DNA of 64,000 bases from Minisyncoccota bacterium (GCA_030583745.1 CP129473.1:362887-426886), one strand, 5' to 3'; positions 43,825 to 48,482 are shown, numbered from the stretch's first letter. Made by a program: numbers and translations. The notes: generated by a model from the sequence alone, not told the origin.

Positions 43825-45291
43825 TTATTTTAAAATCAGAAGAAAAGCATCCAGGAAATTTTGCATATTTTCTTTGGGTGTAAGTTTGGAAACTTTTTTT
43901 GATTCGCTATCAATGTATCCAACTAGACTAGACTTATCAAGCGCTAAAAGATACGCCAAGGTATCGTTCACAGGAATAGAAAATCCCTTTGTAATCATAT
44001 CGAAGACCTTCCGACAATCTTCTTTACTTTTAATCCGTATTGCACCGGGGGCATATTGATACCAGGCGCGGCCGAAAACAAGAGCCGGTTTTTTACCGCG
44101 AAGTATTGTCTCCCATCCAGCCGTACCAGAGACAGTAGCAACTGCTTGCGACTTTCCTATAAGATCCAAAGTTGGCGTCTCTATTGGTACGAGAAAAACA
44201 TTAGGTATGCGTGCAATCCTCCCATAGTAAGAGCGGTAACGATCTTCAGTAAAACCATTTCCGTAATATGGCCACTGAAAAGGATGTTCTTTAACATAGA
44301 TAACCCAATCATTCGGTAAGGAATCTGCGAGTGTCTCAATTAGAAAAATTTGATCTTGAAAAGTTTCGCCTATGGGGTTGGTTGTGCACTCTGGTTGAAG
44401 ATGTAGTGGTACATAAATGAAGTTTCGATTAAAATCTGGTGCAATCTGCAAAGATCTGTATGCGCGAGGCAAATTATGTCTAAAGTAATATGACAACTTA
44501 GAAATCATATTAGGCAGGTTTATATAAAATCTTCTAGCCTTGCTAAAAAAAAGTTTTGGCTTGAAAATACTCGTAAAAAAATTACGAATTTTACGTATTA
44601 TTTTTTTTGTAGCTGTATATGTTTTAAGGCCATCTGTTAGGTAAGAAGGCGACGTATCAACCTCAGGATCATTATGCCGCTCGTAAAGTTTTCTAATATC
44701 TGCAGGAAGATCTTCAGCGCTTATTTGCGAGGAGCGCAGACGCTCGAAATTGTCACGAAGAAGCAAGCTTCCTTCTTGAATATCGTCCATCCATATCATC
44801 CTGCCCTCAACCCAAGTAAATTCAAACATTGACGTCTTAATCCCTAGATGTTTCGCTAGTCCATATAATGCAAAGTAAAGTGGTGCGTGTGGGGTAGTAT
44901 TAAAAAATATTAGCTCGGGTTTATATTGATCAATCAAACCTAACCAGTAACGAATAAACTGGATAAATATTTGCCGTCGTTCTGAAACAGATAGCCCCTG
45001 ATAGATTTTATTCATCATTGGCAGAACCAGAAGCTCTGTACTGGCAAGCTCTTTGAGTAAAGATTCATCCGGATGTGGATATTTATCACATGGAATTTGC
45101 GGGGTCGGAATACTATTTCGCGCTTCGTGGTAGGAGTGAAAAGCTGTATTTGGAAAACGTGAATGATCAATAGCTACGGGATCTTCATTTCTTGCCCAGT
45201 AAACTATTTCATGACCGTTTTTTTCCAGTTCTTCTACGGCATCAACCAACTCCGGACAACTCTCCGCCCATCCTATTAAAAATAATTTCAT
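43825..45291 (-). CDS. Capsule-polysaccharide-biosynthesis (Capsule_synth, KpsS/KpsC-like) family putative glycosyltransferase, paralog 1 of 3.
   Basis: F(I/V)Y(V/F)PLH(L/F)QPE..TNP and (Y/I)VKEHP blocks resemble the KpsS/KpsC beta-Kdo-transferase family motif region. Confidence 0.45.
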   Translation of the reverse strand: MKLFLIGWAESCPELVDAVEELEKNGHEIVYWARNEDPVAIDHSRFPNTAFHSYHEARNSIPTPQIPCDKYPHPDESLLKELASTELLVLPMMNKIYQGLSVSERRQIFIQFIRYWLGLIDQYKPELIFFNTTPHAPLYFALYGLAKHLGIKTSMFEFTWVEGRMIWMDDIQEGSLLLRDNFERLRSSQISAEDLPADIRKLYERHNDPEVDTSPSYLTDGLKTYTATKKIIRKIRNFFTSIFKPKLFFSKARRFYINLPNMISKLSYYFRHNLPRAYRSLQIAPDFNRNFIYVPLHLQPECTTNPIGETFQDQIFLIETLADSLPNDWVIYVKEHPFQWPYYGNGFTEDRYRSYYGRIARIPNVFLVPIETPTLDLIGKSQAVATVSGTAGWETILRGKKPALVFGRAWYQYAPGAIRIKSKEDCRKVFDMITKGFSIPVNDTLAYLLALDKSSLVGYIDSESKKVSKLTPKENMQNFLDAFLLILK

Positions 45292-45366
45292 CCCGTTAGA
45301 AGTAGGAAACCATTAAAAATGGTTTTTATACTTGTTTAATAATAAAATCATAACTTAACTTTTGAT
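45292..45366. repeat. ~75-bp upstream region duplicated verbatim at 48408..48482; contains palindrome aaccattaaaaatggtt.
   Basis: Identical strings cccgttagaagtaggaaaccattaaaaatggtttttatacttgtttaataataaaatcataacttaactttt. Confidence 0.8.
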
Positions 45367-45484
45367 GTGCCGCTTAAATCTCGTTTGTTTCCGTAGATTT
45401 TTTGTGCTTCCAGTATACCATTTGCCTGTTTTCTCGCTTTGTAATAAATAGATATAAAACATAACTTTGTCGTCTCTAATGGGA

Positions 45485-46948: not shown

Positions 46949-46976
46949 ATAATAATTTTAAATTCCAAACCCTAAA

Positions 46977-48407
46977 TCATATCAAGCGTAGAATGTTTTT
47001 TAACATGCCTTCGGCCTGAACTTCAAATGTAGTTGTAAAATGTTCTGGATTATTTCGATAACTCAAATCCAAACATCCCTTGAAACTGTTATCGTCTAGC
47101 CGCTTCAGGTAAGAAAGGACTTGTTTGGCATCTACCTTTTCCCCCATTTCAATTTTTTTCATTGCATCCTTACAAGACGAAGAGTTACTTATAACAAAAA
47201 TTCCTGGAGCGTGCATAAACCAAGGATATCCGAAAACCAAAGAAGGTTTGCCGCGCATAGTCGACTCCCAAGCAGCCGTCCCACTTACAGTCGCAACCGC
47301 TTTAGAATTTCGAATGAGTTTGAAAGAATCGGTATCTACTGGAACCAATCTAACATTTGGAAACCTAGCCATCTTGCGATAATAATCTTTTGGCCTGTAC
47401 GAGCCCCGCCTGGTACCACCAACTGGCCACTGCGTTGGGTGTTCTTTTATATAAATAAACCAATTTTTCGGTAAATGAGTAACCAAAAGTTCTAGCACCA
47501 AGATCTGATCTCTAAAGTAACCTCCCAAGGGATTGGTGGAAAATTCCGGTTGGAGATGCAAAGGGAAATAGATAAACGGCTTTTCAAAATCAGCTACTTT
47601 AGATAGCTTTTTGTAAGCTCTGGGCAATTCCCTACTTGAATGAGTTTGAATCCATTTATAAGTATGAGAGAGTAGGGTCTTCCACATTTTCCCAAGTATT
47701 TTTATCTCCCAAGCTTTTTTTAAAGCTCGAAAACCAGCTTTGGCGCGTCCACCCAAATTATAACTATTCAAAATACTGGGCATGTAGACTGGTACCCCAC
47801 GTTTTAAATCCTTAGTCTGAAAATTATAATATTCCTGAAAATCTTCTGACAAATCGGAAACCTCTATTTCTCTGTCTTCATTTTTTAATTCTTTAAGTTC
47901 GGGTGTTCCTTGAGTAAAATCATTCATAGCCAAGACTCTCCCTTTAACCCAAGTGTCGGAAAAAATGACAGTTTTAATTCCTTTTGCTCGAGCCAGACTG
48001 TATAGAATAAAATGAAGTGGTGGCATATTTGGAACTATGCGAAAAACAATTACGTCCGGTTTTTTTTCAAGGATCAACCATTTTGAGCAGAGAAGTAAAG
48101 TATGATAGATACGTTCCAATTCCGGAAAGGCTTTTTTGGGGTGCGTTCGTTGTAGAAAATCAAAAATATGTGGCTCCTTGTCAGCAATCATCCTGACGTC
48201 TTCAGCGTCAAGCGAAACTTGATTGGATAGTGAAAGCAAAAAATTATTGTCCATTAAGCCTGAGTCTCCTTTTTCATCAATAAAAGAAGTCGGCTCTGAA
48301 CTACCTATCCAGTAGACAGTTTCATGCCCAAGTGATTGGAGTTTGTCCGCCACCGTCACAATCTCAGGGAAAACTGACTGCGAAAAAGAAACAAAAATAA
48401 AACGCAT
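46977..48407 (-). CDS. Capsule_synth-like putative glycosyltransferase, paralog 3 of 3.
   Basis: Same motif set as paralog 1. Confidence 0.45.
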   Translation of the reverse strand: MRFIFVSFSQSVFPEIVTVADKLQSLGHETVYWIGSSEPTSFIDEKGDSGLMDNNFLLSLSNQVSLDAEDVRMIADKEPHIFDFLQRTHPKKAFPELERIYHTLLLCSKWLILEKKPDVIVFRIVPNMPPLHFILYSLARAKGIKTVIFSDTWVKGRVLAMNDFTQGTPELKELKNEDREIEVSDLSEDFQEYYNFQTKDLKRGVPVYMPSILNSYNLGGRAKAGFRALKKAWEIKILGKMWKTLLSHTYKWIQTHSSRELPRAYKKLSKVADFEKPFIYFPLHLQPEFSTNPLGGYFRDQILVLELLVTHLPKNWFIYIKEHPTQWPVGGTRRGSYRPKDYYRKMARFPNVRLVPVDTDSFKLIRNSKAVATVSGTAAWESTMRGKPSLVFGYPWFMHAPGIFVISNSSSCKDAMKKIEMGEKVDAKQVLSYLKRLDDNSFKGCLDLSYRNNPEHFTTTFEVQAEGMLKNILRLI

Positions 48408-48482
48408 CCCGTTAGAAGTAGGAAACCATTAAAAATGGTTTTTATACTTGTTTAATAATAAAATCATAACTTAACTTTTAAT
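48408..48482. repeat. Second copy of the duplicated upstream region (see 45292..45366).
   Basis: Verbatim repeat. Confidence 0.8.

Follow-up and report, generated by a model that had tools for sequence, protein, structure and literature searches.

The window analysed here, a stretch of 64,000 nucleotides (nt) from the genome of a Minisyncoccota bacterium (GCA_030583745.1, CP129473.1:362887-426886), carries on its minus strand three paralogous genes, termed A, B and C, whose products are putative glycosyltransferases (GTs) for a sugar of the pseudaminic acid (Pse) type. Gene A (46977-48407), the first of the triplet, encodes 476 amino acids (aa) and is described here as a putative CMP-pseudaminic-acid transferase with a GT-B fold resembling KpsS1 and the Capsule_synth family; its product is 100% identical to QY304_02135, a protein from a metagenome-assembled genome of Candidatus Paceibacterota, which belongs to the Candidate Phyla Radiation (CPR, Patescibacteria). 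Gene B (45485-46948, 487 aa) starts 28 nt downstream of A, and the two are probably co-transcribed. Gene C (43825-45291, 488 aa) is the most divergent paralog. In end-to-end protein alignments, 47–48% of the residues are identical between A and B, 32–36% between A and C and about 36% between B and C. A preliminary description of this DNA, made from the sequence alone, had proposed three co-oriented paralogs of 476–488 aa that share the blocks F.Y.PLH.QPE..TNP and VKEHP. The open reading frames (ORFs) and the alignment agree with this proposal, with identities of 32–48% and with blocks that read (F)IY(F/V)PLH(L/F)QPE..T(T/S)NP and (V/I)KEHP in all three proteins.

The order A-B-C is kept in two related genomes (L001 and L002), in which B and C overlap by 4 nt, compared to a spacer of 193 nt in the window. 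Positional orthologues of A, B and C in L001 (P0008, P0006 and P0005) are 61–70% identical to the proteins studied here (62% for A/P0008 and 70% for C/P0005), whereas the paralogs share 36–48%, indicating that the triplication predates these lineages. Judged from these identities, the triplication is ancient and not recent. The N-terminal halves of the paralogs are 24–40% identical and the C-terminal halves 43–58%, a distribution that would be expected for enzymes using one donor and different acceptors. The residues that are invariant in the family are retained in A, B and C alike, and the triplet is best read as encoding three non-redundant transferases.

All three proteins pass the gathering score of 20 bits for the Pfam family PF05159 (Capsule_synth), with 25.2 bits for C, 36.9 for B and 28.1 for A, and the match is confined to profile positions 175-268 of 310. 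Precomputed PF05159 matches are also present on most homologues. The family comprises 6,016 cluster representatives (50% identity) at E values up to 1e-30, and those of its members that were named in their source are all labelled 'hypothetical', except for one 'capsular biosynthesis protein'. For Acinetobacter and other bacteria, PF05159 proteins encoded beside nonulosonic acid modules have already been put forward as the enzymes that transfer these sugars (PMC4487303). The NCBIfam model NF046086 (BFO_1060), which stands for the Tannerella forsythia family of transferases for Pse and legionaminic acid (Leg) derivatives (PMC5420450), matched in the C-terminal region only, with 29.2 bits for C and 16.7 and 27.4 bits for B and A (best E value 4.8e-7) against a cut-off of 200 bits. 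The T. forsythia proteins Tanf_01245/TFUB4_00887, which belong to an O-glycosylation system, resemble the triplet by weak matches in the C-terminal region around the HP motif and by the combination of a conserved, CMP-binding C-terminal half with a variable N-terminal half (PMC5420450), as found among A, B and C; they differ in that the triplet proteins are not members of the BFO_1060 family.

For further comparisons, a family profile was built from 57 sequences and motifs were counted in 238 fetched members, with residue numbers referring to gene B. The AlphaFold2 model of B (predicted local distance difference test score, pLDDT, 90.2; predicted template modelling score, pTM, 0.90) has a GT-B-like two-domain fold, and the nearest solved folds are KpsC and WbbB, both retaining transferases of Kdo (3-deoxy-D-manno-octulosonate). 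Consistent with this, the profile detected KpsC in the PDB at an E value of 9e-12, with VKEHP paired with VKVHP of KpsC, and WbbB marginally. Together with the PF05159 matches, the KpsC match supports the earlier assignment to a Capsule_synth (KpsS/KpsC)-like family. A TagF-like CDP-glycerol glycerophosphotransferase (PF04464 or the TagF fold), which the preliminary description had named as the finding that would speak against its assignment, was rejected as a candidate, since the proteins pass PF05159 and their closest folds are KpsC and WbbB. Direct profile alignment with hhalign yielded a probability of 97.6% for the N-terminal module of Escherichia coli KpsC (KpsC-N; E value 2.6e-12, 89 columns) and of 92.6% for E. 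coli KpsS (E value 4.7e-7).

The strongest single relative among those tested was a 480-aa protein of Acinetobacter baumannii, with an hhalign probability of 99.7% and an E value of 4e-26 over 309 columns. It was found by a tblastn search of a plasmid collection, in a mislabelled A. baumannii chromosome, and BLASTP aligned the C-terminal 170–220 residues at E values of 1e-17 to 1e-20. Its gene follows equivalogs of PseB, C, F, G, H and I and a 410-aa ORF without an NCBIfam match, which we take to be wzx after the published gene order of KL2. From this order (psaA-F, wzx) and from the residues Y131-E132, which match the YE motif with Glu132 as described for KpsS1 in PMC12887879, we infer that the 480-aa protein is of the KpsS1 type. 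KpsS1 is presented there, with reference to Walklett 2024, as a characterised retaining Pse5Ac7Ac transferase and as the founder of family GT118. It is itself a member of PF05159 (PMC4487303). The homology to the KpsS1-type protein extends over the full domain in hhalign, and with this homology as yardstick, rather than the family boundary drawn by CAZy, A, B and C are closest to GT118 and most probably represent distant members of the KpsS1/GT118 kind. KpsS1, with its relatives KpsS2 and Gtr59, resembles the triplet in length (480 versus 476–488 aa), in a similar N-terminal start, in the H-x-x-P-E loop and K-(D/E)-H motif of the KpsS1-type protein, and in the position of its gene beside a module of the PseB/C/F/G/H/I type, as the pathway encoded near the triplet is of the Pse type as well. 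The differences are an identity of 23–31%, which in pairwise BLAST covers the C-terminal part only, an HP motif in the triplet versus HK in the A. baumannii protein, the lack of a conserved YE motif (Glu132) in the triplet, the presence of three tandem paralogs here versus one gene per K locus there, and the host, the triplet being from a CPR bacterium that lacks an outer membrane.

Six residues are invariant in the 57 aligned sequences (E299, K332, E333, R349, G387 and E392), and the HP motif is present as H334 in 50 and as P335 in 51 of them. An HP motif in the nucleotide-binding domain and a GT-B-like fold close to KpsC and WbbB are both traits of the retaining ulosonic acid transferases (GT99, GT107, GT118 and GT140), and the triplet shows both. 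Nearly all of the fetched members (235/238) combine [H/Q/N]xxPE with KE[H/N]P 24–50 residues further on, whereas a QxxxD motif 25–45 residues before HP was found in none of the 238. Because this motif defines GT99 and GT107, we did not assign the triplet to either family. In E. coli, QxxxD follows a hydrophobic strand in KpsC-N (VVDQTFND), in the C-terminal module KpsC-C (VPGQVEDD) and in KpsS (AVLQVYND), with the Asp 34–38 residues before the His of the HP motif, and in WbbB and KpsC this Asp acts as the covalent nucleophile (PMC12887879). The sequence at this place is FPLHFQPE here, and its invariant Glu precedes H334 by 35 residues; the KpsS1-type protein reads IHFHPE, with its Glu also 35 residues before its His and with VKDHK as the second shared motif. 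By its position, the invariant Glu of the PLHxQPE loop would be the counterpart of the Asp nucleophile of KpsC, KpsS and WbbB, and the C-terminal half may bind CMP via the KE-H-P motif. The YE motif, whose Glu132 is the proposed general base in the account of KpsS1 in PMC12887879, is not found in the triplet, as E132 pairs in hhalign with R134 of B in a variable column of the family; a PH dipeptide near the equivalent position is conserved in B and C and not in A. Besides the matching subdomain around HP, KpsC/KpsS (GT107) and WbbB (GT99) share with the triplet the expected CMP-ulosonic acid donor and a carboxylate 34–38 residues before the HP His, and in the Kps system three modules act together. 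They differ by QxxxD in place of HxxPE and by a neighbouring pathway of the Kdo type versus the Pse type, and the N-terminal domain and a helical insert of about 100 residues in the triplet proteins are unmatched in them.

A biosynthesis operon of the Pse type, identified with Pfam and NCBIfam equivalogs, occupies positions 23158-33414 on the minus strand of the window. It encodes PseB (32404-33414; NCBIfam score 442.8, cut-off 407.75), PseC (31218-32324; 437.8, cut-off 423.5) and PseI fused to a DUF218 domain (23973-25631; 481.5, cut-off 340.25), and as all three exceed the equivalog cut-offs, the pathway is classified as pseudaminic-acid-type. The operon further contains a fused HepA/MsbA/PglK-like ABC exporter (29406-31202, minus strand), a CTP_transf_3 cytidylyltransferase (27729-28475, minus strand; Pfam) and, according to Pfam, a GFO/IDH/MocA oxidoreductase, a class-III aminotransferase and one or more methyltransferases. 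The DUF218 domain precedes the NeuB and SAF domains of PseI, a separate DUF218 ORF lies nearby on the opposite strand (27117-27683), and DUF218 genes also occur in the nonulosonic acid clusters of two of the other loci (L081 and L082). Since no equivalog of PseG or PseH was found in the window, some of the pathway steps may be modified or taken over by the products of the DUF218, GFO/IDH/MocA and class-III aminotransferase genes.

The preliminary description had placed the triplet next to a nonulosonic acid pathway. This does not hold in the window itself, where the Pse genes are 10.4 kb away behind a block with an RHS toxin gene, but it does in relatives: the triplet lies directly beside genes for Pse or another ulosonic acid in L001, L002 and the sister strain L085, with GT4 glycosyltransferase genes on the opposite side in L001 and L002. 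Such direct adjacency was observed in the sister strain and in three of five more distant CPR loci, and in six other loci examined the homologues lie within one or two genes of ulosonic acid synthesis genes. In Harrisonbacteria, two tandem paralogs are located between an ABC exporter and genes for NeuB, a cytidylyltransferase, DegT and PseB. The single copy in Peribacteria follows an ABC exporter, with the pathway genes about 8 kb away and a cytidylyltransferase and DegT within 10 kb. On a Rhizobium plasmid, NeuB is encoded three genes away from a homologue, and genes for NeuC and an acylneuraminate cytidylyltransferase follow farther downstream. In Magasanikbacteria (L082, 5160-8545), one copy stands between a module of KdsA-like (DAHP_synth_1), HAD and cytidylyltransferase genes and a module of PseB, DegT, cytidylyltransferase and NeuB genes. 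Beside the KdsA-like module, L082 also encodes a 522-aa protein without a Pfam match, which could be a further divergent ulosonic acid transferase. A literature search on nonulosonic acids in CPR bacteria returned nothing relevant.

The Magasanikbacteria arrangement bears on the alternative that A, B and C are beta-Kdo transferases, acting on an 8-carbon sugar like KpsS and the two KpsC modules and building a linker or oligomer of the poly-Kdo type. The KdsA-like, HAD and cytidylyltransferase neighbours of that homologue fit this explanation, as do the best match of the cytidylyltransferase in the window to KdsB models (80 bits, below the cut-off) and the number of modules, which would equal KpsS, KpsC-N and KpsC-C. 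Kdo transferases also account for the nearest solved folds and for all sequence matches in the PDB; however, solved structures are biased towards Kdo enzymes, and no structure of KpsS1 or another pseudaminyltransferase was among the PDB matches. No KdsA, KdsD or KpsF was detected among the scanned ORFs of the window, which instead contains PseB, PseC and PseI equivalogs, and the family shares HxxPE with KpsS1 instead of having QxxxD. The match to the KpsS1-type protein (E value 4e-26, 309 columns) moreover far exceeds those to KpsC (2.6e-12, 89 columns) and KpsS (4.7e-7). Taken together, we regard the transfer of Kdo by the triplet as very unlikely. Transfer of a 9-carbon ulosonic sugar, as suggested in the preliminary description, agrees with the PseB, PseC and PseI equivalogs, the KpsS1-type match and the synteny, and the sugar can putatively be narrowed down to pseudaminic acid.

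As the preliminary description had claimed, two of the three genes, namely A and C, are preceded by an identical 75-nt region with a palindrome. The exact repeat (48405-48479 for A and 45289-45363 for C, minus strand) consists of a 72-nt leader and the ATG of the respective gene, where the identity stops. Further upstream, the two regions remain about 65% similar over another 48 nt or so, and a repeat search returned the whole as 123 nt with 86% identity. An identity over 75 nt is far beyond chance for genes whose products share 32–36% of residues. When the arms of the palindrome AACCATTAAAAATGGTT (17 nt) are lengthened to 8 bp around a 3-nt spacer, it becomes the 19-nt inverted repeat AAACCATTTTTAATGGTTT at 45307-45325 in the leader of C. 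In contrast to that of A, the leader of C is shared, with two substitutions, by every contig of the sister strains (L085, GCA_016860785.1, and L086-L088; about 97% identity to the window).

Alignment with L085 revealed the origin of the second copy as a strain-specific insertion of 127 nt exactly at the start codon of A (48408-48534, minus strand), which is also absent in L087. Accordingly, the spacer between the GT4 gene and A measures 229 nt here and 95 nt in the sister strains. The 3' 72 nt of the insert are identical to the leader of C, including the two bases by which the C leader of this strain differs from those of the sisters, and the copy runs on through the ATG that now starts A. The insert is flanked by the 7-nt direct repeat ATGCGTT (48535-48541 and 48401-48407, minus strand; window aligned with L085), the first copy of which is the original start of A and now opens an upstream ORF of eight codons (MRSVIRSH*). 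In an independent short-read assembly with 99.9% identity (L089), a contig starts within the leader of A and ends within the leader of C, as would happen if a genuine repeat had interrupted the assembly, which confirms the insertion. Of the two explanations offered in the preliminary description, a recent duplication of promoter plus gene start is not supported in this form, given the ancient triplication, the end of the identity at the ATG and the strain-specific insertion at the start of A.

The 5' 52–55 nt of the insert are about 65% similar to the tail of a GIY-YIG nuclease gene that lies upstream of C. This ORF of 35 codons (45358-45462, stop codon 45355-45357, minus strand; tblastn coordinates) scores 28.1 bits with PF01541 (threshold 22.6), and represents a truncated gene, as the match is limited to profile positions 1-32 of 78. 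It is conserved in the sister strains with 34 of 35 residues identical. A more decayed GIY-YIG remnant is located in the insert before A (about 48474-48512), and a 48-aa read-through query derived from the GIY-YIG remnant had no words in common with any protein. L001 and L002 possess neither the B-C spacer nor the leader, and the sisters have the same spacer as the window; the spacer is thus specific to this species-level clade. At the species level, a decayed GIY-YIG gene together with the 72-nt leader would have split the ancestral overlap of B and C. In this strain alone, a partial copy of 127 nt would then have landed exactly at the start codon of A with a 7-nt direct repeat, thereby providing A with a new ATG and with the same immediate 5' leader as C.

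Alternatively, in line with the second explanation of the preliminary description, the 75 nt could be a shared promoter with an operator palindrome that is kept identical by selection or gene conversion and co-regulates A-B and C. Perfect identity of the 75 nt next to homologous sequence of about 65% identity would be compatible with this explanation, and the two strain-specific bases of the C leader recur in the copy before A, as could result from conversion of one copy by the other. With its position 17 nt upstream of the ATG, the palindrome could plausibly serve as an operator or as an element of the 5' untranslated region, and inspection by eye reveals a weak TTATGA-N17-TATAAA. However, a consensus scan detected neither a sigma-70-like promoter nor a terminator in either copy, and the two substitutions of the sisters hit the putative -10 element. 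The copy before A is absent in the sister strains, so that A cannot have been regulated by it over a long time, and the distant relatives lack spacer and element altogether. The hairpin is weak: the 75 nt fold no better than shuffled sequences (z -0.32), and perfect hairpins of this geometry (8-bp arms, 3-nt loop) number six in the window, compared to about two expected. Two of the six are the duplicated palindrome itself, and the palindrome taken alone is not beyond chance. An Rfam search of positions 43600-48800 with E values up to 1 returned no match to the leader and, as its sole hit, a chance snoRNA elsewhere. A conserved cis-regulatory element of this kind is therefore unlikely in our opinion. 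By its position, the leader might have a regulatory role. That the insert acts as a portable 5' leader by which the expression of surface-glycan genes is rewired between strains is a more far-reaching idea that we consider quite unlikely.

The search for further copies of the palindrome that the preliminary description had suggested was carried out for the window, where exactly two sites were found, those in the two leaders, even when two mismatches were allowed. Among GTDB representative genomes, which do not include the source genome, the 19-nt palindrome had 78 scattered hits in unrelated taxa, and in none of them did the similarity reach into the remainder of the 75 nt (42 of 75 positions at best). 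At least four copies occur in one Saprospiraceae chromosome (OZ252053.1), where they probably belong to an unrelated repeat family. For copies of the leader, a 24-mer had no hits in the JGI metagenomes, a degenerate 22-mer had one unrelated GC-rich chance hit there, IMG/VR contained none, and blastn-short searches of the window and ten related loci recovered the known copies alone.

Correia-type and other small miniature inverted-repeat transposable elements (MITEs) insert beside start codons, to which they supply promoters or processing hairpins. The insert resembles them in its size of about 127 nt, its AT-richness, the internal hairpin, the flanking direct repeat, an imperfect terminal repeat and the polymorphism between strains. 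It may thus be a small non-autonomous MITE-like element with a 7-bp target-site duplication, of which the unit upstream of C would be an older copy. The precise insertion, the ATGCGTT repeat and the presence or absence among near-identical strains are in line with this possibility, as are the ends of the insert, which form the imperfect inverted repeat CCGTTA(TTA)GAAGT ... ACTTCTAACGG that also appears in the centroid fold, and the 5' half, whose dissimilarity to the C copy suggests another donor. An IS200-like Y1 transposase gene (PF01797) is present in the window at 60961-61644 and could be a source of transposition; no link between this gene and the insert was found. On the other hand, the insert is known in two copies, with none in the other loci, the JGI metagenomes or IMG/VR, its terminal repeat is short and interrupted, and the C copy has no recognisable target duplication. 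With its 5' half homologous to GIY-YIG coding sequence, the insert looks more like a partial copy of a segment than like a defined element, no cognate transposase was identified for the insert, and the promoter scan of its leader part was empty, in contrast to what is known of Correia-type elements. We therefore consider a MITE-like nature of the insert possible but doubtful. Since the 5' 52 nt of the insert are only about 65% similar to the sequence upstream of C, the C copy was not its simple donor, and either a third, MITE-like mobile member of the family or an ectopic copy followed by conversion is a possible mechanism.

In the reading that we consider likely, A, B and C are anciently diverged GT-B paralogs of the KpsS1 (GT118) and KpsC/KpsS (GT107) kind that transfer a Pse-type sugar, and the 127-nt insertion is a separate and recent event. 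Each of the enzymes would take a CMP-activated pseudaminic-acid-type sugar from the pathway encoded by the neighbouring operon with PseB, PseC, PseI and the cytidylyltransferase and would attach it within a surface glycan, each to an acceptor or in a linkage of its own. The flanking GT4 enzymes would build the remaining glycan, and the Wzx, Wzy-like and ABC exporter proteins would export it. Homology, fold, synteny and the insertion polymorphism are shown by the data, whereas the donor sugar, the catalytic residues, the distinct acceptors and any effect of the leader on regulation are inferred.

Several observations weigh against parts of this reading. The similarity to the T. forsythia family BFO_1060 amounts to just 17–29 bits against a cut-off of 200, and sequence similarity to KpsC and KpsS spans only about 90–115 residues around the HP motif. 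The proposed equivalence of the Glu to the Asp nucleophile follows from spacing and local pattern, and for KpsC and KpsS hhalign stops short of the loop in question. Equivalogs of PseF, PseG and PseH were not found in the NCBIfam scan of the window, and the cytidylyltransferase is nearest to KdsB models, so that the exact sugar could be a modified or different ulosonic acid. The KdsA-like neighbour of the L082 homologue makes an 8-carbon donor possible for the family as a whole. The putative use of CMP-Pse with retention of configuration by this CPR clade is proposed from genomic association, namely from the PseB, PseC and PseI equivalogs in the locus and the conserved arrangement. With regard to the insertion, its 5' 52 nt differ by about 35% from the copy upstream of C, and no third copy was found in the loci, metagenomes and IMG/VR entries searched.

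A more far-reaching idea is that the triplet forms a set with division of labour like KpsS, KpsC-N and KpsC-C, which would build oligo- or poly-pseudaminic acid on the CPR surface, with the Glu of HxxPE replacing the Asp of QxxxD. In that case, C would add the first Pse to a lipid or glycan primer, and A and B would add more in alternating linkages, but we consider this scenario quite unlikely. GT118-type transferases were reportedly first demonstrated biochemically in 2024, and the likely reading of A, B and C as distant relatives of KpsS1 would extend nonulosonic acid transferases of this type into the CPR. If true, these ultra-small bacteria, which depend on a host, would carry sugars of the pseudaminic acid type on their surface, attached by three non-redundant transferases. 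The kind of enzyme is already known, and current understanding is not overturned. The surface-glycan loci of near-identical strains differ by small (127 nt) as well as large (9.7 kb) insertions, the latter carrying toxin genes.

Upstream of the triplet, five GT4 glycosyltransferases and a methyltransferase are encoded at 48637-54800 (Pfam), in an arrangement shared with L001, L085 and L087, followed by a TrwB/VirD4-like coupling ATPase (TrwB_AAD_bind, T4SS-DNA_transf; 54915-56657) beside a DUF4015 putative glycosyl hydrolase and Mur ligases. Next to the Pse operon lie a Wzx-type flippase (21713-22969) and a Wzy_C protein, resembling O-antigen ligases or polymerases, with C-terminal TPR repeats (19448-21625; Pfam). 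Together with the ABC exporter in the operon, these genes indicate that the locus holds components of Wzx/Wzy-type and ABC-type export alike. A fused ABC exporter is also encoded directly upstream of the transferase homologues in Harrisonbacteria (L081, 6661-8514) and Peribacteria (L083, 8257-9999), and this gene order suggests that the glycan product might be flipped or exported in an ABC-dependent manner.

The block that separates gene C from the Pse operon in this strain (34124-43824, minus strand) is 9.7 kb long and absent from L085, whose collinearity with the window breaks exactly there. It encodes an RHS/YD-repeat toxin of 2177 aa (37130-43663, minus strand) and, between 34360 and 36676, orphan toxin/immunity cassettes, for which Pfam identified a Tse2-like ADP-ribosyltransferase (35921-36676), a PT-TG pre-toxin (34735-35505) and a DUF7674 protein (34360-34734). 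We regard this block as genomic context that stands outside the glycan system. Within the RHS gene, a 219-nt unit is repeated 6.7 times in tandem at 40992-42457 without any difference between the copies (100% identity), corresponding to a 73-aa repeat (...FDPDFYQLPSHYRTTEQDYYFWGLREYVQLIDVNGDGLPDYVV...), and the perfect identity of the copies indicates either a very recent expansion or a collapse or expansion during assembly.

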